Assembly (NCBI GenBank): GCA_944362765.1
Contig: CALVTP010000004.1
Coordinates: 2,250 to 66,249, forward strand
Source: an uncultured Clostridia bacterium
GTDB lineage: Bacteria > Bacillota > Clostridia > Christensenellales > DTU072
Length of the DNA stretch: 64,000 nt
Direction: 5' to 3'
This document shows, piece after piece, positions 1,244-56,133 of the stretch. Position numbers and translations under genes: made by a program. The first letter of the stretch is position 1, and each line of letters opens with the position of its first letter. The notes under the pieces were generated by a model, which was given only the letters and a program-made list of their open reading frames with translations, did not search any database and had not been told where the DNA came from.

Positions 1244-2092
1244 ATGACCGATTACACCGATAAGATCCTGGACGGCAGAGCGGTAGCCAAACACATGGAG
1301 GCGGAAATTGCCCGAAAAATCGAACAGGAATTGGCGTCGGGCGCCGTAAGACCTGTGCTCGCTACTATAATAGTAGGGGAAAATCCTTCTTCCGTCACCT
1401 ACGTCAGGATGAAAGGGAACGCCTGTAAACGGGTCGGAATAGAACCGAGAAAAGTGGAACTTCCCGAAAACACCACTACTGAGGAACTCCTTTCCGTCAT
1501 CGACTCCCTGAACGCCGATCCCGACGTCTACGGCATACTCCTTCAGCATCCCGTACCGCGTTCCATCGACGAGCGCGCCTGCTTCGACAGAATTGCTCCC
1601 GAAAAGGACGTCGACGGCGTAGGCGTCAATTCTCTCGGGAAGACCGCTTTGGGGCTCCCCGGCTACCGCGCAGCCACCGCCAAAGCCATCATGAATATCC
1701 TGGAGTACTATAAAATCCCCCTTCAAGGAAAAGAAGCCGTCGTCATCGGCAGATCCCCGATACTCGGAAAGCCCGTTGCAATGCTGTTGTTGAATGCCGA
1801 TTGCACCGTCACCGTCACCCACACCAAAACGGTGGATATCGATAAAGTCGTCCGCCGAGCCGACATCGTCGTTGCCGCCTGCGGCGTGCCGCGATTCGTC
1901 AGACCCGAGTGGATAAAGCCCGGCGCAGTCGTCATAGACGCCGGATATAACGCGGGGAATGTCGGCGATGTCGATGAGGGAGCTTTCGAGAATGCGTCGT
2001 TGATGACTCCCGTACCCGGAGGAGTCGGTCCTGTCACAATCGCTTCTTTAATGCAGCAAACATTATTTTCTTTCTGCGATAGAAATAAATAG
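1244..2092 (+). CDS. folD: bifunctional methylenetetrahydrofolate dehydrogenase/cyclohydrolase
   Basis: YVRMKGNAC, GILLQHP, PEKDVDG, VIGRSPILGKP, TPVPGGVGPVT. RBS GGAGG 1234-1238 precedes ATG 1244. Confidence 0.95.
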   Translation: MTDYTDKILDGRAVAKHMEAEIARKIEQELASGAVRPVLATIIVGENPSSVTYVRMKGNACKRVGIEPRKVELPENTTTEELLSVIDSLNADPDVYGILLQHPVPRSIDERACFDRIAPEKDVDGVGVNSLGKTALGLPGYRAATAKAIMNILEYYKIPLQGKEAVVIGRSPILGKPVAMLLLNADCTVTVTHTKTVDIDKVVRRADIVVAACGVPRFVRPEWIKPGAVVIDAGYNAGNVGDVDEGAFENASLMTPVPGGVGPVTIASLMQQTLFSFCDRNK

Positions 2093-3304
2093 AGAAACGT
2101 TATTGCTCGCAAAATCGTTTATTTATAAAAAGCTTGTACCCCGTACGGGCTTTTTTCATAAGGAAAGACCTGATGCAGAAAGAAAAATGTTTGCTGCATG
2201 ACCCGCGTATCGGAACATATTTCACGGCACTTTCGGGCGAAAGAAACAAGTTTCCCGCAAGGGCTCCCTTGATTGTATGTCGATACTAATCGGCGGGAGT
2301 TTCGCCCGAAACCGCAGTCATTGATGCCTCCCGAGGCATAATTGCCTGCTTCGCCGCAAACTAACGCAATCCCGACATCAGTCTGTTTAAACAGCTTTTG
2401 CCTTTTGCTTGCCCCGATCCGCTCCGTACCCCGTACTTTACACGTTCGTCAACATATCGACGACTGTGTGTGATTTATATTGAGAGTTTGGTCGGTTGTA
2501 ACTTCTTTCTGCAAGAGAAATAAATAGAGAAACGTTATTGCACGCAAAGACGATATTGTGTAAAAAAGTTCGTACCCCGTACGAGCTTTTTTCATAAGGA
2601 AAAATATATGCAGAAAGAAAAATGTTTGCTGCATAAGCAAAGGACAGGAGCGAAGCGACTGTCCGTTTTGGAGCCAACTCTTATAATACCGAAGAGAAGG
2701 AAGAGATATAGTCTTAGAAAGATAGATTTTGCGGGTTATTAAAAATTTGTACATCAATTTTGCGGGGTCGTTATAAAACAACTTATACTATAAATTTAAG
2801 CGTAACAATGTTGACTATCGTGTAAAGTACGGGATACGGAGCGGATCGGGGCAAGCAAAAGGAATATAAGACGTTGGAGCAAGCATGAGCCTTGTTTGCG
2901 TTAGTTTGCGGCGAAGCAACCGGCGGAGGCGATAAAGCCTCTACCGGTTGCGGTTTCGGGCGAAATTGGCGAAGGGCTGTATCGACATACGCTCCGAGGC
3001 AACTCCCGTAGGGAGGAAACTTGTTTCTTTCGCCCGAAAGCGCCGTGAAATATGCCCCAAGCCGCGGCTATATAATTTTCTTCCCGCTCTATCCCTTCCT
3101 TATTGAAAAAGCTTATGCGTGCGTACAAGCTTTTCCATAAGGTTTTTCTTTGCGAGATATTAAAGTCCTCATACTCTAACTTTGCGGGAAGAAAATTATA
3201 AAAAATCGGTTGTAACTTCTTTCTGCAAGAGAAATAAATAGAGAAACGTTATTGCTCGCAAAAACGACATTGTGTAAAAAAGTTCGCCCGTTCGGGCGAA
3301 CTTT
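2051..3304. repeat. cluster 1 of modular palindromic repeats (modules X, P, Q, S, R), between convergent folD and sialidase
   Basis: X copies at 2066-2186, 2503-2619, 3071-3200 (inverted) and 3217-3304 (partial). P/Q at 2205-2456 (reverse) and 2808-3058 (forward). R at 2641-2734. All modules recur at 53379-56044. Confidence 0.92.
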
Positions 3305-3357
3305 CAAATGCGTTTAATTGATTCCGAGAGAAGTTTTATGGGCGCGGATTCGGGAAG

Positions 3358-4629
3358 CTACTTCAATTCGGAAAGGGAGAAGGTTGTGAATTTAATGTCT
3401 TCGTGCTTTGTGCAGTCTTCGAACAATACGGCGATTCTGCCGTCGGGGAGCTGAGCCGCGGAAGAATAAACGAATTCTCCGTCGGTTATCAACAGGCTGC
3501 GCGGGAAGGTCTTTCCGCCGTCGAAGGAAAGTCTTGCCGTTCCCAGGCGGCGTTTTTTAGGATCTGCCGCGTTGATGGTCAGAATTGCCTCTTTGCCGTT
3601 CTCCTCGACTCGTAAAGCTGTTATCTGACAGACGCATTGCGGTAGCTCCGGGTGAAGTTCGGGTTCCGTCCACGTTATGCCTGAATCGTTGGAACGGGAA
3701 ACCATAATCAAGCGTTTGGGATGATGATTCCTTAAAAACCATACCAATTCCCCGGAATCCAATTCGACTACCTGGCTTTCGGTAAGGTAAGTTCTCATCG
3801 GGAAAATCAAGGGGTTTTCTTTGCCGATATATCTGCCGCGGATAGGGGGCGTATCGGTGACCGACCAAGTCTTTCCGCCGTCGTCGGAGTAAATTAGGGC
3901 GGTAGTCAGTTTCATGGGCAGTTTGCCTAATCCGTAGTAAATCGGGAAAATCAATCTGCCGGCGTGCTCGCCGTGGCGCAGCTGAATTCCGTTTGCGGGA
4001 CCGGAGCCTATGAAGTGCCAGTTTTTGCCTTTTACCGAGGGGTTTAGCTCCAGGGGCTTTGACCAGGTTTTGCCGTGGTCGTCGGAACGTATCATCATCA
4101 GGAACGAAGTTTCGTACAGTTTATAGCCGCCTTCGCCGGTCAATACGTTGCCGCCGCTCCAGGTGCCGTCTTCGGCGACCGCATATTTTTCGGAGCCTGA
4201 CTCGTCGACCATTTCCCCGTCCTTCCACAAGAATTTTTTGCCGTTTCCGGTAACAAGCCTGGCGCCACCCGCATAGCCCGTCCCTTTCTTGCAGTTAAGA
4301 ATGCCGATACCCGCGGGGGTCATCGAATAGAGCATGAATACGGCGTCCTGCCGCTCGTCATAGAGCATGGCGGGGTCGATAGCCGCGGCGGAGTGCTTTT
4401 TGTCTTTACCGACCATTTTTACGGCGGTAATCTGCTCCGACCAGCTTTTTCCGCCGTCGGTAGAGATGCGGACGACCTTGTCGATGCGGTTCGGATTGTC
4501 GGCAGCGGTGAAAAAACGTTCGTCACAAGCTGCGACCAGAGTGCCGTCCTTCGTGCAGACGACGGAGGGAATGCGGTAGTTATCGGCATTGCCCGTAGCG
4601 CGTGAAAAAACAACGGAAAAATTATCCAT
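3358..4629 (-). CDS. exo-alpha-sialidase (GH33), no signal peptide
   Basis: YRIP motif near the N-terminus and five Asp-boxes (STDGGKSW, SDDHGKTW, SDDGGKTW, SNDSGITW, SFDGGKTF). Confidence 0.9.
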   Translation of the reverse strand: MDNFSVVFSRATGNADNYRIPSVVCTKDGTLVAACDERFFTAADNPNRIDKVVRISTDGGKSWSEQITAVKMVGKDKKHSAAAIDPAMLYDERQDAVFMLYSMTPAGIGILNCKKGTGYAGGARLVTGNGKKFLWKDGEMVDESGSEKYAVAEDGTWSGGNVLTGEGGYKLYETSFLMMIRSDDHGKTWSKPLELNPSVKGKNWHFIGSGPANGIQLRHGEHAGRLIFPIYYGLGKLPMKLTTALIYSDDGGKTWSVTDTPPIRGRYIGKENPLIFPMRTYLTESQVVELDSGELVWFLRNHHPKRLIMVSRSNDSGITWTEPELHPELPQCVCQITALRVEENGKEAILTINAADPKKRRLGTARLSFDGGKTFPRSLLITDGEFVYSSAAQLPDGRIAVLFEDCTKHEDIKFTTFSLSELK

Positions 4630-6268: not shown

Positions 6269-6925
6269 ATGAAAAAGAGCATGTACAGCCTGATGCTGGC
6301 GGACGAAGTCGTAAAAGCCGTTGACGAATTGGCGGCAGAACAGGGCACCAACCGTTCCAACATGATAAATCAGATACTTGCCGAGCGGCTGGAGCTGGTC
6401 ACCCCCGAAAAGCATGTCGGGCAGATATTCGACGTCATCGGCACGCTGATGGGCGGGCGCGGAGAGTACAGGATGTACTCCGAACCGAACAATCTCACCA
6501 TGTCGATAAAAAGTGTTTTAAAGTATCATTACCGCCCGACTATCCGCTACGAGGTCGAAATGCAGCGCAGCTTTACATCGACCGTCGGACAGCTGAAAAT
6601 CCTTTTCAGGACGACTTCGTCGGAGCTTTTAATGGAACTTACGCGTTTTTTCGGCTTGTGGATCAAGCTTGAAGGAATATACCTGAAGGAGTACTTCGGT
6701 GACCTCTTTCCGCACTACGGAATGGAGCCCGGACGCTTCACGAGGACGTTTGTGTCGTACGGTGAAAGCACTTACTCCGATAACGAAATAGGGGACGCGA
6801 TAGGTAACTACGTCGCTACATTCGACGAGATATTGAAAGGGTATCTTTCCGGAGAGTACAGGACGATGGAAGATATCGAAAACAGGTATATCGGGTACCT
6901 GAACAGCGGCGTTCGGTTGATATAA
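6269..6925 (+). CDS. protein with an N-terminal CopG/ribbon-helix-helix-like domain
   Basis: MKKSMYSLMLADEVVKAVDELAAEQGTNRSNMINQILAERL fits a beta-alpha-alpha RHH pattern; strong RBS AAGGAGG. Confidence 0.7.
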   Translation: MKKSMYSLMLADEVVKAVDELAAEQGTNRSNMINQILAERLELVTPEKHVGQIFDVIGTLMGGRGEYRMYSEPNNLTMSIKSVLKYHYRPTIRYEVEMQRSFTSTVGQLKILFRTTSSELLMELTRFFGLWIKLEGIYLKEYFGDLFPHYGMEPGRFTRTFVSYGESTYSDNEIGDAIGNYVATFDEILKGYLSGEYRTMEDIENRYIGYLNSGVRLI

Positions 6926-6955
6926 CTGCAATTTTCTAAAAAGGAGGCGAGATAT

Positions 6956-9553
6956 ATGAACGCACAGAAATTTACTAAAAAGTCGCTGGAAGCGCTGGGG
7001 AGCGCCGAAAGCATTGCAATAGAAAATCAAAACATACAGGTGATGCCCGAGCACCTTACCTACGCGCTTGTCGACCAGGACGGCGGACTTATACCGTCGC
7101 TTCTTAAAAAAGCGGGCGTCGACGTCGACAGGCTGCTGGCACTGTTGGACGGCGCTATTCAAAAGATTCCCGCCGTCAGCGGTTCGGGGAGAGAACCCGG
7201 GAAGATCTATATTTCCCCTCTCACCGATAAAATTCTGACCGGGGCGGAGCGCCTTAGGGACAAGTCGAAGGACGAATACGTTTCCGTCGAGCATATCATG
7301 CTGTCTGTTTTCGACCACGCGACGGAGGAATTGAAGTCGATTTTCCGCGCCATGGGCATTACCCGGACGGCGTTCGAAGAGGAGCTGAAAAAGGTCAAGA
7401 CCGACAGGGTGACTTCGGACGAACCCGAAAACGCCTATGACGCCCTGAATAAGTACGGTTTCGACCTTGTCGAGCGCGCCAAGCAGCAAAAACTCGACCC
7501 CGTCATCGGGCGGGACGCAGAAATAAGAAACGTCATTCGTATTCTTTCCAGGAAGACCAAAAACAACCCCGTTCTGATAGGTGAACCGGGCGTAGGCAAG
7601 ACAGCCGTAGTCGAAGGATTGGCTCAGCGTATTGTGCGCGGCGACGTCCCGGAAGGGTTGAAGGACAAGACGGTTTTTGCGCTGGATATGGGCGCGCTGA
7701 TAGCAGGCGCCAAGTTCAGGGGAGAGTTCGAAGAGAGACTGAAAGCCGTTCTGAACGAAATAAAAAAGAGCGAAGGCAGAATAATTTTATTTATCGACGA
7801 GCTCCATACCATTGTCGGAGCCGGCAAATCGGACGGAGCGATGGACGCGGGAAACCTTTTAAAGCCGATGCTTGCAAGAGGGGAACTTCATTGTATAGGC
7901 GCGACGACTTTGGACGAGTACAGAAAGTACATCGAAAAGGACGCCGCGCTCGAAAGGCGCTTCCAGCCCGTCACCGTCGACGAACCGACCGTCGAGGACA
8001 CGATATCGATACTGCGTGGGTTGAAGGAAAGGTACGAAGTGTACCACGGAGTACGCATTCACGATTCGGCGTTGATAGCGGCGGCTACGCTTTCGCACCG
8101 CTATATCTCCGACAGATTCCTCCCCGACAAAGCCATCGACCTTGTTGACGAAGCTTCTGCGACGATAAGGACGGAGATAGACTCCATGCCCGGCGAAATG
8201 GACGACATCAGACGGAGGATAATGCAGCTTGAAATAGAGGAAATTTCCCTTCAAAAGGAGTCCGACAAGCTTTCCGCCGAGAGGCTGGAGACCATTCGGA
8301 AGGAACTTGCCGACGACAAGGAAAAGTTCAACGCCATGAAAGCGGAATGGGCAAAAGAAAAGGAAAGTATCCACGCCGTATCCGACCTGAAAGCCGAAAT
8401 AGAGAAATTGAACGGCGAGATAGAGGCGGCGCAGCGTAACGGCGATTACGCCCTGGCGGCGGAGCTGAAGTACGGAAAACTTCCCCAATTACAAAAGAAA
8501 CTGGAGGATGCAAGCCGCGAATCGGGGAAAAAGTACTCCCTTTTGAGGGACACCGTCACCGAAGAGGAAATCGCCAAAGTCGTCTCCCGTTGGACGGGCA
8601 TACCGCTTACCAAGCTTATGCAGGGAGAGCGCGAAAAGATTCTCCATCTCGGGGACATCCTCCACGAGCGCGTAATAGGGCAGGACGAGGCGGTCACCAA
8701 GGTCACCGAAGCCATCATCCGTTCGCGGGCGGGGATATCCGACCCCAACCGCCCGATAGGCTCCTTCCTCTTCCTGGGACCTACCGGAGTAGGTAAGACG
8801 GAGCTTGCGAAAGCGCTTGCCGAAAGCCTTTTCGACGACGAGCACAACATCGTCAGAATCGATATGACGGAGTATATGGAGAAGTTTTCGGTCTCCCGTC
8901 TTATCGGCGCCCCTCCGGGATACGTCGGTTATGACGAGGGCGGACAGCTTACCGAAGCCGTCAGGAGAAAACCTTACTCCGTCGTGCTGTTCGACGAAAT
9001 AGAGAAGGCGCATCCTGACGTATTCAACATCCTTTTGCAGGTTTTGGACGACGGAAGGATAACCGATTCGCAGGGAAGGACAGTGGACTTCAAAAACACC
9101 ATAATAATTCTTACTTCGAATCTCGGTTCCCAATTTTTGCTGGACGGTATCGACGACAACGGCGAAATCTCGGAGGAAGCCAAGGAAAGCGTCGAAAAGC
9201 TTTTGAAGCAGAGCTTCCGTCCCGAGTTTTTAAACAGACTCGACGAAATCGTCTTCTACAAGCCGCTGACGAAAAAAGACGTCGTGAAGATTGTCGAACT
9301 GTTGGTAAAGGGACTCGAAAAACGGCTCGAAGACAGGCAGTTGAAGCTGGAAATCACTCCGAAAGCCAAAGAGCTCATCGCCGAGCTCGGTTACGACCCC
9401 GTCTACGGTGCGAGACCGCTGAAGCGGTTCATGCAAAGCAGGATCGAGACTCTTATCGCCCGCGTCATTCTCTCCGACGACCCCGCTCCCGGCGACGAGA
9501 TAGTCGTCGGCGCCGACAACGAAGATTTCCGCGTCGAAGTCAGGACGAAATAG
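6956..9553 (+). CDS. clpB: ATP-dependent chaperone ClpB
   Basis: Two AAA+ modules ([16 protein letters not shown]), coiled-coil middle domain, KYGKLP and GARPLKR motifs; 865 aa. Confidence 0.97.
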
Positions 9554-51938: not shown

Positions 51939-52023
51939 AACAGGTTTCCGAAACTTCGGAAAAGGGAACCCTAAACAGCATTTAACATATACCTGCGCTG
52001 CAAGGCGCCGGGTGGAGGAGAGT

Positions 52024-53385
52024 ATGTGTAAACGTAAAAAATTGACCAGGGCAGAGAGACTCAGAAGAGAATTGGTCGAAGACCACATCAAGACCAGGCG
52101 CGAAATGTTTGAAGACAGAGCCCGGCTGAACAGGCACGTGTTCCGGTACGGCGCGCCGCCTCCCGGCTCGGTGCTGTATGACGAGCATCACGATATGTCG
52201 GCGGCAAACGGCGTCTTCGTGAACGGCAGACAGAAGGATGCGCTTACGGTAATACGTCCCTCCGGCAGGGGTTATGAAGACATCGGAACGGGAGCCTACA
52301 ACACCGAAAAACCGGATTTTTATCGTGTGGCTCTGGCAGGGCGTCCCTACGAACCGGTCTTCCCGACCGCGGAGTCGAAGAAGTTCTTCATCGGCTGCAT
52401 TAAAAGGGCGCTGCCGCTCTTTCCGATAGAGACGGAAAGCTATTCGATTCTCGCGAATTCGGCGTATTTTGTCTTTGCGTCGTACGACCAAACAAGGATA
52501 AGTCTGCAGCGCTTCGTTTCGTTGGTTATCGAAACTTATGCCGACTATTACAACGAGGCTTTCGGGCATTCGGGTACTCCGTTCAGGGGGAGACCCGAAT
52601 TGAAAAAGCTGGATAAGCTCGAAGAGATTGCCGACCAGATAACCTTGGTTCAAAGGCAGCCGATAGTGCGCGGACACCGCCCGGACTATCCCTTCTCTTC
52701 GATAGGCGAAGGCGAGGGCGGACTGACAAGCACAACCGCGTTCAACGATCGCTTCGGCGCCGCAGGCAAGAAGGCGTTGCAGGAGGCAAGTACCGAGGAG
52801 TATTCCAAGCTTCACGCCGTCGACCTTTCTACCAGGCTGTTCGGTTTGAATCCCCGCCTCACCGAAGTAATCGAGGAAACGCTTATCGATTACGGCTGCT
52901 TTACCAAGCGCGCAATGCCCAATTTCCTCATGCCTAAGGTCGTTGCCGAAGTCAACGAGCGCTCCGGAGCCTCCTTCAAAAAGATTTCGCGGAAAATGGG
53001 CGGCGGCTGGCGCACCAGGTATGAGCTTCTGGTCAAAACCATTTGCGAATTGATTATCGAGTCGAAGCGCACGTTCGACTACGCCTGGCGCACTTTGCAG
53101 GTGGAAAAGTACCAAAAACGCCCCGTCGCAATCGACGTTGCCGAGGAGCTTTTTGATCGCCTCGGCTACTCGATAGACCAAATCTTCCAAATGATGGGTT
53201 TTGCTTATTGCGCCGTCATCAACGGCACCGTCCAATACTATAATGAAGATCTCCTAGTTCGTTTGATAAAGGACTACGCCTTAGAGCACAATTGCCCCGT
53301 CACGAAGGTTATAGAGTTGTTCGGCATCCGTAACTCCCACGAAGATCCCCAAAGGGTACTGCGCGTCTCTTCTTATTTTATGTAA
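52024..53385 (+). CDS. catalytically degenerate Y1 HUH (IS200/RAYT-like) transposase-fold protein with tandem HTH-like repeats
   Basis: Manual alignment to the RAYT pattern over 52318-52704. NHxH reads NSAY (52456-52467), YNxxxxRxGHLFQGR reads YNEAFGHSGTPFRGR, RYIHxNP reads TLVQRQP, and DYxWSS reads DYPFSS. RBS GGAGG precedes ATG 52024. Confidence 0.75.
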   Translation: MCKRKKLTRAERLRRELVEDHIKTRREMFEDRARLNRHVFRYGAPPPGSVLYDEHHDMSAANGVFVNGRQKDALTVIRPSGRGYEDIGTGAYNTEKPDFYRVALAGRPYEPVFPTAESKKFFIGCIKRALPLFPIETESYSILANSAYFVFASYDQTRISLQRFVSLVIETYADYYNEAFGHSGTPFRGRPELKKLDKLEEIADQITLVQRQPIVRGHRPDYPFSSIGEGEGGLTSTTAFNDRFGAAGKKALQEASTEEYSKLHAVDLSTRLFGLNPRLTEVIEETLIDYGCFTKRAMPNFLMPKVVAEVNERSGASFKKISRKMGGGWRTRYELLVKTICELIIESKRTFDYAWRTLQVEKYQKRPVAIDVAEELFDRLGYSIDQIFQMMGFAYCAVINGTVQYYNEDLLVRLIKDYALEHNCPVTKVIELFGIRNSHEDPQRVLRVSSYFM

Positions 53386-53937
53386 TTTTCTTCCCGCAAG
53401 ATTAAAGTTAGAGAACTTTAATTGCTCGCTTGAACAAAGCCTTATGGAAAAGTTCGTACCCCGTACGAGCTTTTTTCATAAGGAAGGATTAATTGCGGGA
53501 AGAAAATTACATACCCGCGGCTTGGGGCATATTTCACGGCGCTTTCGGGCAGGACAGGAGCGAAGCGACTGTCCGTTTTGGAGCCAACTCTTATAATACC
53601 GAAGAGAAGGAAGAGATATCGTCTTAGAAAGATAGATTTTGCGGCGGAGTGACGAAATGAGAGAGCGGCATACGACGTATGCCGCGAAAGATATTTCTAT
53701 ACTCCGCCACAAAAGATAATTTGTAAGGCGATAGAAATTTCTTCGAAGCGGTATTATTTTGATTAAAGTGGGGTACTATAAGCCAATATAGAGACAGCAT
53801 AGGGCATTATTCAAACAAGCTTTAGTTGAAGAAGCTCTTACAAGAAGAAATATTATTTATTGAATCGGTATGCTATAATTTCCGCATGAAAACAAATATA
53901 AATCTGAAAATTAATTCAAAAAACTCAGCAAAAACTA

Positions 53938-53966
53938 TTGCAATTTATCCCCAATTATGATATAAT
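53938..53966 (+). promoter_or_regulatory. sigmaA promoter P1 with no downstream ORF
   Basis: TTGCAA, 17 bp, TG-a-TATAAT, followed by TATAGGGGA. Confidence 0.75.
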
Positions 53967-54517
53967 TATAGGGGACGGATACGGATAATCGATAAGCTCT
54001 CGTTCCGTCGGCTCGAAGGGTGTTTGCCCTTGGGGCAAACACTTGGGCTACGCACTTTTGCTACCACAAAAGTGCGCGCCCGCGCTCGCTCGAATCGTGG
54101 CAGAGTCGTTAATATCGTGGCAGTTTTACATCACAAGGTAGTCGCTTCGCTTCGATTAGACTAGACCCACCCAACCGCCCACAAGTTTGCCGCTATGCGG
54201 GATAGGAATATTAATATTAGTATACGCATACCGCTATCCCCTTTCGCGTTCTCATGGCGATAACATCACACAAGGTTGCCGCTACGCGGATGATGGGGAA
54301 TATATAAGCTATAATTTGTTTTAACGCATTACGATATTCTTTCAATTCGCTTATATACTGGCGATATTACATTTCAATGTGTTTCTTCGCTCCGATATGA
54401 TTTAACTATATAAGCATATGGAATATTATTGATATAACAAATCATTTTAATTATTTAATTTCAGCAGGAAATTAAATATAAAATCGAAAATTATATCAAA
54501 TAATTTAACAAAAAGTA

Positions 54518-54546
54518 TTGCATTTTTAGGCATAATGTGATATAAT
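54518..54546 (+). promoter_or_regulatory. sigmaA promoter P2, paralog of P1
   Basis: TTGCAT, 17 bp, TG-a-TATAAT, followed by TTAAGGGGA; 580 bp downstream of P1. Confidence 0.75.
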
Positions 54547-54644
54547 TTAAGGGGATAGGGTTGCGATTACCGCCGAGGGGCGGAAGGTTTGGTGTGCGCA
54601 CTTTGCCGGGCTAAGCTGCGCGGCGGGTGTCTGCTCGAATCGTG

Positions 54645-54918
54645 GCAGAGTCGTGAGTATCGTGGCGGTTTTACGGCGTTGTTTGTGAAGTAAGGCAGAG
54701 TGGTGGGTATCATGGCGGTTTTATATTTTTGTTCAAATCATAGCTAAGTTTTTAATATCCTGGCAATCTTACGGCGCTATTGTTGTAATAAGTCATAGTC
54801 GTAAGTATCGTAGCTGTTTTACGGCTTTTTCGGTAAGATACAGCATGGTCGTAATAAGCATGGCGTTCTTATTATCTTTTAAATCTTTGCGTAGTCGTGA
54901 TACATTTAGCAATTCTAC
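54645..54918 (+). repeat. degenerate ~50-bp tandem array, about six units
   Basis: Core TATCGTGGC variants start at 54658, 54708, 54756, 54806, 54856 and ~54902. Confidence 0.7.
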
Positions 54919-56133
54919 ATCACAAGGTGGTCGCTTTGTTCCGAGAAGACTAGACCCACCCAACCGCCCACAAGGTTGCCGCTGCGCGGGATAGGAATAT
55001 TAATATCAGGATACGCATATCGTTATTCCGCTTTCGCATTCTCATAACTACATCTTTCCACAAGGTTGCCGCTGCGCGGATTGGAAATATAAAATAGTCA
55101 TGCTGTTATTCTGTATTTCCATTACAGCAGTTTTCCTCAAGGTTCCCGCTTCGCGGATAAGTGAATGGAAAATAGGTAATTAGTTCAAGTACTCCTATCG
55201 GTGAAGCCTGCTTTACCGTTTATTATAGCAAATTTAATATATTTATAATACCCGGCTATATTTCAATAATACCGCTTCGAAGAAATTTCTATCGCCTTAA
55301 AAATTATCTTTTGTGGCGGAGTATAGAAATATCTTTCGCGGCATACGTCGTATGCCGCTCTCTCATTTCGTCACTCCGCCGCAAAATCTATCTTTCTAAG
55401 ACGATATCTCTTCCTTCTCTTCGGTATTATAAGAGTTGGCTCCAAAACGGACAGTTGCTTCGCTCCTGTCCTGCTACGCGGGTATAATTTTCTTCCCGCA
55501 TCAATAGCTCCTTATGAAAAAAGTCCGTACGGGGTACGAACTTTTCCATAAGGGTTTGTTTTAACGAGCAATAAAAGTACTCTTACTTAAATCTTGCGGG
55601 AAGGGCTACAACCGACCAAACTCTCACTATAAAATACAGCCGTTGAGATGTAGACGAGCGTGTAAACTGTGAGATACGGAGCGGATTGGGGCAAGCAAAA
55701 GACAAAAGCTGTTTGAGTAGACTAAAGTCGGGATTGCGTTAGTTTGCGGCGAAGCAACCGGCGGAGGCGATGAAGCCTCTACCGGTTGCGATTTCGTGCG
55801 AAATTGGCGAAGGGCTGTATCGACATACGCTCCGAGGCAACTCCCGAAGGGAGGGAACTTGTTCCTTTCGCTCGAAAGCGCCGTGAAATATGCCCCTAGA
55901 CGCGGGTATACTATAATTTTCTTCCCGCATTAATAACTCCTTATGAAAAAAGTCCGCACGGGTGGCGAACTTTTTTATAAGGGTCTGTTCTCGCGAGCAA
56001 TTATAGTTCTCTTACTTAAATTTCGCGGGAAGAAAATTATAGTAAAATATATATTATATATACGCGCGCGTATGATAGAATGAGATACGGAGAAGTCTGC
56101 CCAAAACTTCTCTCAACTCATTCAGAGGTAAGT

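Follow-up and report, generated by a model that had tools for sequence, protein, structure and literature searches.

The window analysed here is a 64,000-nt stretch of DNA from an uncultured chicken-gut Clostridia bacterium, which is represented by a 1.71-Mb short-read metagenome-assembled genome (MAG). Two clusters of repeats lie in it: cluster 1 begins at the 3′ end of folD, and cluster 2 reaches from the stop codon of gene 52012-53385 to a position shortly upstream of a giant lipoprotein gene. An earlier note on this DNA had pointed to a composite of about 670 bp shared by both clusters. The modules are the following.

Cluster 1
2051..2199, plus strand: X1, an anchor X; left arm (2051-2077) formed by the folD 3′ end, right arm (2175-2199) an inverted copy of the folD end, centre a terminator-resembling hairpin (covariance-model match G000:C4:4311-4440)
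2200..2384, plus strand: P, variant Pa, a multi-hairpin body beginning with ACCCGCG
2385..2502, plus strand: Q of the composite; its 3′ end GGTCGGTTGTA (2490-2500) is the segment called S in the earlier note
2503..2634, plus strand: X2, an internal X fused to Q, without the TAATTTT part of the left arm
2641..2734, plus strand: R, in which a hypervariable mini-hairpin lies between a 5′ hairpin and a 3′ part of 50 nt, both of them invariant
2735..3300, minus strand: rest of the cluster, a 51-nt linker and then reverse-oriented Q, P and X
about 2880-3071, reverse orientation: P, variant Pb
3072-3192, reverse orientation: X
3206-3300, forward: partial X, with its hairpin ~60 nt past the stop of a minus-strand BNR-domain gene

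Cluster 2
53376..53758, plus strand: opposite end of the cluster, an anchor X on the TAA of gene 52012-53385, followed by a 40-nt P stub (53511-53550), R (53551-53644) and E (53645-53758)
55379..55472, minus strand: R of the composite, within a 210-nt inverted repeat (R+E; repeat pairs I1, I4)
55483..55603, minus strand: X2 of the composite
55604..55720, minus strand: Q of the composite including the S joint
55719..55909, minus strand: P of the composite, variant Pb
55912..56046, minus strand: X1 of the composite, off a stop codon; it precedes the start of the giant lipoprotein gene by ~85 nt

Two stretches with the same module order

The module order at 2066-2734 equals the reverse complement of 55381-56044 (X-P-Q/S-X-R), as the earlier note had stated, and the two are collinear in a MAFFT alignment. 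Between 2050-2760(+) and 55360-56070(-) the mean column identity is 84% through X, P, Q, X and R, and a repeat search of the window yielded the same pairs (I2, I4, I6, I9, I11, I17, D7). This likeness is far beyond chance. Direct counting reproduced exactly the differences reported before, 1 of 94 positions between R at 2641-2734 and R at 53551-53644 and 7 of 163 between P at 2896-3058 and P at 55734-55896; R at 2641-2734 differs from the reverse complement of 55379-55472 at 2 of 94 positions. The 210-nt R+E inverted repeat of cluster 2 matches 53549-53758 at 99%. In cluster 1 the right arm of X2 (2610-2634) is identical to that of X1 letter for letter, and both share a 2-nt gap relative to the folD arm. 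The composite contains no ORF of more than 63 aa, and no reading frame is kept across the bodies.

The possibility that collapsed or mis-joined repeats of the short-read metagenome bin mimic a shared composite was weighed against independent assemblies. Of the 136 contig ends of the MAG, 19 fall in array modules, R is nearly identical between loci, and strain contigs compared for array regions end within repeats. A second assembly (sample ERZ28613582) breaks inside the cluster-1 repeats, but agrees at 100% on either side, up to 2315 and again from 2887 onwards, thus matching both edges of the cluster. Likewise a 98% strain (SRR7457757) continues from folD into X1. Furthermore, each of the ten composites of the genome (see below) lies between unique flanks of its own and their sequences have diverged (75-90%), differences that assemblers can resolve, and arrays of the same kind occur in the independent genome G013. 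An artefact as the source of the shared order is therefore very improbable. Joins through the near-identical R could nevertheless be chimeric and inflate the apparent mosaicism beyond R.

Array grammar and anchoring on stop codons

Throughout the MAG 61 array loci obey a strict module grammar. X occurs in about 128-135 dispersed copies, Q in 72, full P in 27 and R in 42. Each array opens with X; every later cassette consists of a body starting with CCGCG, then Q and then a new X, with Q and X fused at one fixed joint, to which the S-X junction of the earlier note corresponds. Three body types fill the cassette slot: the structured P of ~190 nt, an unrelated body N of 126-180 nt, or R plus E. 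P and N occupy the P slot about equally often (27 and 25 times in the genome), while R stands right behind X or behind a P stub of 38-41 nt. The counts of neighbouring modules are Q to X (57), X to P (27), P to Q (27), X to R (23), X to P stub (22), R to E (21) and P stub to R (19). The spacing between successive X copies falls into classes of 243, 277-286, 296-316 and 410-440 nt, and adjacent X copies are direct in 54 pairs (28 ++, 26 --) versus inverted in 19.

The genome holds ten runs with exactly the order X-P-Q-X-(P stub)-R, each 613-683 bp long. Since the grammar permits few orders, every array in which a P cassette is followed by an R cassette gives the 670-bp order. The two stretches noticed in the window are two of these ten instances; each is made up of two cassettes that follow one another in a modular non-coding array, and is not a single element.

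X is a quasi-palindrome of ~130 bp (126-136 nt) with 16-bp outer arms (TAATTTTCTTCCCGC/GCGGGAAGAAAATTA) and a 20-bp central terminator-like hairpin bordered by A and T runs. Its terminal inverted repeats span 13-16 nt; TA borders both arms (TA-ATTTT...AAAAT-TA), and these flanks are themselves further inverted copies of each other. Dozens of genes have such an array on their stop codon, the left arm TAATTTTCTTCCCGC of X often being the source of the TAA of the upstream gene. Among 68 non-internal X copies, 43 abut an open frame of at least 100 codons, and 28 of these frames end precisely with the TAA of TAATTTT as stop codon. Pairing within X reaches 94.4% of cells, with 24 of 36 pairs changed on both sides; none of 500 shuffles was as high, and slid controls were ~50% paired. 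The arms (29 copies) are 97.6% paired, and in 25 of 67 anchor X copies they pair at least 5 nt beyond TAATTTT. Hybrid copies (C2:6676, C45:10926) carry left and right arms from different subfamilies.

The orthologous folD spacer measures 143 bp in S. merdigallinarum (L031) versus 1260 bp here. The covariance model finds no X in the shorter spacer, but because this species shares the X-like folD tail it was rejected as a clean empty site. A coding reading of the right X arm, suggested by AAGGAG-N7-ATG, was dismissed as well: the subsequent frames are short, shift with the variable extension, and stop after 9 codons where an N body follows.

Module histories, structure and distribution

Across the ten composites the distance matrices of the modules are essentially uncorrelated (r -0.07 to 0.41, Mantel p mostly >0.05). 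The ten copies are mosaics of modules with separate histories, and the two composites of the window are among the least alike of them (X1 72%, P 79%, Q 86%, X2 78%). P exists in two variants, Pa and Pb, plus chimeras at C35 and C40:12569. The earlier note had taken the close similarity of R and P as a sign that some modules were homogenised recently. This does not hold for the pair in particular: R is 96-99% identical over about 34 copies genome-wide, so that its likeness in the two clusters requires no special event, and 7 differences in 163 positions are ordinary for P, as same-variant copies are 91-98% identical. Local homogenisation does occur, but in one part of the arrays only: the right arm of X, together with the extension that derives from its flank, is closer within arrays than between them (0 of 300 permutations).

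Larger blocks are seldom shared: only six of at least 300 bp at ≥94% were found. Two of the six, each shared by one pair of loci, measure 806-879 bp at 95% and show that multi-module units are sometimes copied whole. Together with the recurrence of ten copies in the same order and of similar length, these pairs are what speaks for a discrete non-autonomous transposable element of 670 bp that moves as a whole, in keeping with the mobile or recombining unit larger than any one hairpin that the earlier note supposed. We disfavour this reading and regard it as improbable, as the module histories are incongruent and the ends of the shared blocks do not lie at the composite borders. Neither end of the composite is constant: on the left stands a stop-codon anchor X or an internal X (C2:6255), and on the right the sequence runs into E or into a 47-nt linker with inverted Q-P-X. 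Moreover, just as many cassettes hold N in the place of P. Of the earlier proposal there remains that the unit exceeds any one hairpin and that the mosaics have a fixed order; a single mobile unit and a BIME nature were not borne out.

Folding of the composite gave z values of -11 for the plus strand and -6 for the minus strand. In P 98% of cells are paired compared with 88-91% in shuffles, with 14-15 compensatory pairs. R comprises 74 nearly invariant nt surrounding the hypervariable mini-hairpin. Q copies elsewhere in the genome hold a promoter-like motif, TCTACA-17-TATAGT; in the forward Q of the window (2385..2502) its spacer carries a 4-nt insertion, and the scan detects the motif in the reverse Q at 2814-2787. 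GTAG is confined to two places, the Q-X joint and the beginning of R.

The distribution of X was searched with covariance model R1 in 22 species of the genus. It yielded 135 matches in this genome, 91 in G013, 19 in G007, 9 in G010 and 4 in G001; X is present in 7 of the 22 species and had no match in the other 15. A 'species-specific family', as suggested by BLAST, is therefore rejected. In G013, X′-body′-X′ arrays occur whose body is helix-closed and unrelated. Of Q, P and R, the only trace outside this genome is one fragment in G001, in which a 25-nt core of R is identical while the adjoining X and Q are ~84% identical. In IMG/VR the X arm had 102 single hits, all attributable to chance and without a match to the module HMMs, and the scan for R gave no hits; a scan of JGI metagenomes for the Q core returned one chance match only. 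At gathering score the sole Rfam 15 match in the window was a tRNA-Gln, and at E≤5 the best sub-threshold match in 2000-3400 was Thr_leader with 27 bits against a cut-off of 55.

A search for an autonomous partner found no orphan X-arm pair enclosing an ORF. Among the multi-copy ORFs, which encode LRR surface proteins, there was no transposase. TnpB and reverse transcriptase were likewise not found. PF01797 matched only two sequences, an IS200-type TnpA at C34 and, at C7, a decayed copy, and there is no X at the flanks of either; gene 52012-53385 beside cluster 2 had no match at E≤0.01.

These structural data also bear on the idea that the loci are arrays of functional RNA genes, in which function would set the order and P, N, R and E would be selected structured RNAs. 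X would then end the upstream gene and terminate in both directions, and the Q promoter would drive an RNA of ~105 nt that runs across S and the left half of X and stops at the X terminator. The conserved promoter-like motif of Q, the X hairpin with its A and T runs, the many compensatory pairs in P and X, the near-invariant R with a core more conserved in G001 than its neighbours, and the recurrence of the architecture in G013 with bodies that are unrelated are all in line with this. Still, we consider it unlikely: the arrays have no Rfam match, the promoter spacing of the forward Q in the window is broken, X is absent from 15 of 22 species and the system is thus dispensable, and template switching without selection can yield compensatory stems (PMC8794818). 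The idea is compatible with the explanation preferred below and does not exclude it.

Proposed origin and comparison with known systems

Taken as a whole, the arrays are probably best explained as mosaic cassettes reshuffled by recombination or conversion, with template-switched hairpins and a mobile-like X. They would grow and be reshuffled one cassette at a time, likely by recombination or gene conversion between dispersed conserved segments, namely X, the joint of Q with X and the CCGCG with which all bodies begin, and blocks of 0.8-0.9 kb seem to be copied between loci now and then. The complementary stems (X arms, P hairpins, R mini-hairpin) and the extension of X arms into gene flanks likely arise from template switching between arms during replication (quasi-palindrome correction), a process documented to create and maintain hairpins (PMC8794818, PMC7202029); selection on RNA or DNA structure possibly aids stem maintenance. 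X itself, patchy in the genus and with bursts in single species, would be a non-autonomous mobile-like element. That the grammar is so strict, that parts of R are invariant and that G013 repeats the architecture with unrelated bodies could instead reflect functional selection.

A more far-reaching idea is that of an undescribed, integron-like platform of structured-ncRNA cassettes anchored on stop codons, with X as terminator and recombination site, Q as portable promoter, exchangeable RNA bodies, a programmable R and hairpin-templated copying. We regard this as speculative and rather unlikely. If it were true, P, N, R-E and the helix-closed body of G013 would be exchangeable RNA genes, and R, with its invariant scaffold and hypervariable mini-hairpin, a programmable recognition element.

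Small dispersed repeats such as REP/BIME, BOX, Correia and RUP have long been known, and how they build higher-order mosaics is still unsettled. The present 1.7-Mb genome offers ~61 arrays with a simple countable grammar, stop-codon anchors, compensated stems and arms that copy the adjoining coding sequence. Because these features and the sister-species architecture come together, two questions can be tested in one system: whether it is cassette-wise recombination or transposition that enlarges mosaic repeats, and whether template switching alone makes and extends long hairpins, including the remodelling of protein C-termini (folD tail). In practical terms, the arrays break short-read assemblies of this gut lineage.

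Several known systems share parts of this architecture. Integron arrays and CALINs (attC clusters without integrase) are likewise co-oriented, with imperfect palindromes of ~60-140 nt between exchangeable cassettes, and in attC as in X the palindrome sequence varies while pairing is kept. In contrast, the cassettes described here lack ORFs and are scattered over ~60 loci instead of one platform, and the X arms contain no attC R''/R' core (RYYYAAC...GTTRRRY).

MITEs such as Correia and RUP (PMC3184786, PMC10969869) resemble X in their TA-flanked terminal inverted repeats, non-coding nature, copy number above 100, patchy occurrence among species and internal terminator. The searches described above brought up no partner IS that shares the ends of X, however, and the arms of X reach into locus-specific inverted copies of the flanks; 28 insertions lie exactly on a stop codon, and X serves as scaffold for cassette arrays. 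The pneumococcal SPRITE is, like X, a Rho-independent-terminator-like repeat strongly enriched just past the 3′ ends of CDSs, but it is a single short element of 30 copies without long outer arms, flank-derived extensions or cassette arrays (PMC3049150).

With BOX of Streptococcus pneumoniae (boxA-boxB(n)-boxC; Croucher 2011, PMC3049150) the arrays have in common a fixed order with variable module number, the lack of coding capacity, a length up to ~640 bp, predicted folding and the restriction to one species and close relatives (PMC3049150). BOX forms one A..C unit bounded by terminal inverted repeats, whereas the arrays are open-ended and stop-codon-anchored and have alternative bodies per slot; a sequence relation is not apparent, the organism is unrelated, and the likeness is one of architecture only.

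BIME/REP mosaics of Enterobacteria and Stenotrophomonas (Gilson 1991; Nunvar 2010, PMC2817692) also combine extragenic palindromes and defined linkers into higher-order mosaics at the 3′ ends of genes; complementary mutations keep the palindromes, and hybrid clusters occur in both (PMC2817692). REPs differ from X in length (20-40 versus 126-136 nt) and usually in a GTAG or CGTC head; they alternate in orientation, whereas neighbouring X copies are mostly direct. REPs go with an active RAYT, X is without a linked active RAYT (PF01797 search), and the linkers of these arrays are, unlike those of BIMEs, structured cassettes of 130-440 nt. The arrays are mosaic intergenic repeats that resemble BIME or BOX but would belong to neither.

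Two composite copies in the window

The module order that the earlier note had proposed as common to both clusters was recovered by alignment of the window. Positions 2050-2760 (+) and 55360-56070 (-) are collinear across five modules with a column identity of 84%, and the repeat search returned the same pairs. The segment S, which the note had placed between Q and X, is the 3′ end of Q, and its S-X junction is the constant Q-X joint of the arrays. Both clusters lack credible ORFs (stretches 2093-3357 and 53386-56079).

Modules and arrays of the window (> and <, the two orientations; spacers in nt)
X, ~125-150 bp: inverted arms around a terminator-like hairpin
P, ~185 nt
Q, ~118 nt: ends in GGTCGGTTGTA
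R, 94 nt: 2641-2734, 53551-53644 and 55379-55472, plus 31 more copies in the genome
Composite (X-P-Q-X-R): 2066-2734 (+) and 55381-56044 (-)
Cluster 1, after folD: >X >P >Q >X >R ..51.. <Q <P <X, then a partial X
Cluster 2: >X >P stub >R >E ..1508.. <E <R <X <Q <P <X

Direct counting reproduced the reported differences, 1 of 94 positions for R (2641-2734 vs. 53551-53644) and 7 of 163 for P (2896-3058 vs. 55734-55896). A recent homogenisation particular to these clusters did not hold for R, which is 96-99% identical among 34 full copies; the single difference is therefore not specific to the two clusters. In the same locus pairs, the X beside R is 84% and E 94% identical. R opens with a 5′ hairpin of 24 nt (GGACAG..CTGTCC) that does not vary. 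A mini-hairpin of 12-15 nt follows, hypervariable in sequence and present in at least four versions that all keep the hairpin, and the 3′ part of 50 nt is again almost invariant. A neutral repeat would not usually show such a scaffold with a variable loop. The 25-nt core of R has 39 occurrences in this genome (G000) and one in G001, another species of the genus; 81 genomes of the family gave no others.

In cluster 2, R and E form a 210-nt inverted repeat (53549-53758 and 55265-55474, 99% complementary). The 1506 nt of AT-rich non-coding DNA in between are built of 15-30-copy repeats, among them tandem units of ~49 bp (54633-54822) and duplicated units of 148 nt (54093 and 54882). A giant ORF from 56133 (+) starts with a lipoprotein signal peptide (MRKKSIITIIAILAMAVTALICLSA). 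As the outer X lies ~85 nt from its start codon, the array occupies the promoter region of this ORF.

Array grammar and mosaic composites

The source is a short-read MAG of 1.71 Mb in 68 contigs. Its FolD shares 90% identity with the protein of Candidatus Stercoripulliclostridium merdigallinarum, a Clostridia lineage from the chicken gut. All of the modules are repeats dispersed over the genome. With nhmmer profiles built on the same genome and overlaps resolved, 128 X, 72 Q, 54 P (27 full length), 42 R and 34 E copies were counted; since 19 of the 136 contig ends lie inside modules, these counts are lower bounds, and joins that pass through near-identical modules (R in particular) should be read with caution. 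The modules form 61 array loci and make up 2.1% of the assembly. The other large repeat class is coding and comprises leucine-rich-repeat surface proteins with LTSIEIPAGVTSIG units (C43:2275-3941, C46:471-3755, C1:90957-93360), not transposases.

The arrays follow a strict grammar. Each begins with X, and each further cassette adds a body starting with CCGCG, then Q, then X. The counts of neighbouring modules are Q->X (57), X->P (27), P->Q (27), X->R (23), X->P stub of 38-41 nt (22), R->E (21), P stub->R (19) and Q followed after 47 nt by inverted R (12), and successive X copies are spaced in classes of 243, 277-286, 296-316 and 410-440 nt. Between X and Q, the body is P in 27 cases and a member of the unrelated N family (126-180 nt) in 25. 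At the constant Q-X joint GGTCGGTTGTAGCC runs directly into CTTCCCGC, and the TAATTTT part of the X left arm is removed; a second joint type keeps the full left arm and involves an X subfamily with the left arm CTTTCCGC.

The order X-P-Q-X-(P stub)-R occurs ten times in the genome (613-683 bp each), twice in the window, and the window pair is one of the most divergent.

Pairwise identity of composite modules (mean of the ten composites; window pair)
X1 (first X): 0.82; 0.72
P, two variants: 0.89; 0.79 (Pa vs. Pb)
Q: 0.85; 0.86
X2 (second X): 0.80; 0.78
R: 0.965; 0.98

Across the ten composites the distance matrices of the modules are nearly uncorrelated (r -0.07 to 0.41, permutation p mostly >0.05). 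Mosaics are found within modules as well: P chimeras join the 5′ part of one variant to the hairpin of the other (C35, C40:12569), and some X copies carry arms from two subfamilies. Six shared blocks of ≥300 bp at ≥94% identity exist genome-wide; the longest (C2/C47, 879 bp; C55/C60, 806 bp) cover several modules and do not end at composite borders. Taken together, the uncorrelated distances, the chimeras and the block limits argue against the composite as a single unit. Judged from these sequence comparisons, the common order is due to the grammar plus occasional block copying. The larger mobile or recombining unit of the earlier note thus stands as far as multi-module block copying and mosaics are concerned; transposition of a fixed 670-bp element, like a recent exchange between the two clusters, runs against the module-wise divergence and the block borders.

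P folds as a helix-closed multi-hairpin with 98% of cells paired (88-91% in shuffles) and 14-15 compensated pairs (0-5 in slid controls). Its G-U pairs weakly favour the strand opposite to the composite orientation, a mixed signal. The whole composite folds much more stably than shuffled sequence, with z = -11 on the plus strand and z = -6 on the minus strand.

Stems, stop codons and right arms of X

The structure of X was set by hand with 29 copies, of which five come from relatives. In total 94.4% of cells are paired; shuffles gave 87.4%, and none of 500 was as high. Both partners have changed in 24 of 36 pairs (7.1 expected), and sliding the partner by 1-3 columns left ~50% paired. In the outer arms pairing reaches 97.6%, and 14 of the 16 pairs are compensated.

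Arm subfamilies of X (left/right)
CTTCCCGC/GCGGGAAG
CTTTCCGC/GCGGAAAG
TTTGCCC/GGGCAAA
TCCACCGC/GCGGTGGA
CTTTCTGC/GCAGAAAG, cluster 1 only

Many X copies outside a Q joint are anchored on stop codons. An open frame of ≥100 codons adjoins 43 of 68 such copies; its stop is exactly the TAA of TAATTTT in 28 of the 43, and in nine the frame continues into X. The arms of 25 of 67 anchor copies pair ≥5 nt past TAATTTT, and this pairing reaches as far as 22 nt outward of the core, so the right side contains an inverted copy of the coding-sequence end. In the window, the left arm of X1 (ATGCAGCAAACATTATTTTCTTTCTGC) is the 3′ end of folD. X1 and X2 of cluster 1 share one right-arm sequence, GCAGAAAGAAAAATGTTTGCTGCAT, and in both it departs from a perfect complement by the same 2-nt gap, so the two right arms are copies of one another. 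Within arrays, compared with between arrays, identity is raised for the right arm (0.76 vs. 0.67) and the extension beyond it (0.60 vs. 0.47; 0 of 300 permutations as high for either), but not for the X centre (0.77 vs. 0.76). This local likeness is real but narrow. Most X copies carry CATAAGGAG-N7-ATG immediately before the right arm (e.g. 2160-2176 and 55925-55945 (-)), which resembles a perfect ribosome-binding site with start codon; the frames downstream of it are short and lack conservation.

The last 9-10 codons of folD (LFSFCDRNK) resemble an X left arm read through after a TAA->TTA change.

Regions at the folD 3′ end
Window: 2051-2092
S. merdigallinarum (L031): 6800-6851
G013, another species of the genus (L032): 6790-6964

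S. merdigallinarum folD has the same tail, and model R1, a covariance model of X, found no X in its folD region. Its 143-bp spacer (1260 bp here) is thus not a clean empty site, and the folD site is probably an old X site. In G013 a different X′ sits on the folD TGA stop, eight codons further downstream, suggesting that insertion on the stop codon happened more than once.

Distribution, proposed spread and known systems

By BLAST and nhmmer, Q, P and R were found only in this genome, apart from one fragment in G001. X is patchily distributed in the genus, with matches to model R1 in at least seven of 22 species and none among up to 150 scored candidates per genome in the 15 others.

X matches, model R1
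G000: at least 135
G013: at least 91
G007: at least 19
G010: at least 9
G001: at least 4
G018: at least 1
G004: at least 1

The sister species G013 (CALVJA01, BRZ_CF bin14; L260-L264) has X′-body′-X′ arrays with arms that also extend into the flank. Its helix-closed body of ~200 nt begins with CCACCGC and is unrelated in sequence; in one copy an insertion of ~190 nt interrupts the body. On this sequence evidence the array architecture is a family trait and the bodies are lineage-specific. No related sequences were found in IMG/VR or JGI metagenomes.

Searches for an ORF bounded by X arms, a multi-copy transposase, TnpB or a reverse transcriptase found none, and the gene whose stop codon anchors cluster 2 has no PF01797 match at E≤0.01. 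IS200-type TnpA is present as one intact (152 aa, C34:35-391) and one decayed copy (C7).

Loci of IS200-type elements
G000: C34:1-573
G000: C7:7548-8250
G001: C1 ~229.2-232.5 kb (L112)

The element ends in G000 are unlike the modules. The same IS is present in G001 at 98.6% identity, and its right end there lies directly against the single P(3′ 34 nt)-Q-X-P stub-R(core) fragment of that species. In G001 and C7 the left end follows a terminator T-run (TTTTTGTG).

We infer that X spreads as a non-autonomous element, whose TA-flanked arms are compatible with a TA target. Cassettes would be gained and swapped at X when dispersed conserved segments recombine or undergo gene conversion, and some blocks would be copied. 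Template switching between the arms at replication, as documented elsewhere (PMC8794818, PMC7202029), would maintain stem complementarity and lengthen stems into the flanks, and only non-coding right-side changes would survive. The arrays may also be functional, with X as terminator, Q as promoter carrier and the bodies as RNA genes; Q contains a promoter-like TCTACA-17-TATAGT, and such a role is compatible with the proposed mechanism.

As mosaics of palindromic units and linkers the arrays are like BIMEs or BOX elements, and X resembles a SPRITE or a TA-flanked MITE (PMC2817692, PMC3049150). They belong to none of these families: unit size, orientation and the lack of an active RAYT separate them from BIMEs, to which the earlier note had likened them, the attC core of integrons is absent, and the searches found no partner IS for X as expected of a MITE.
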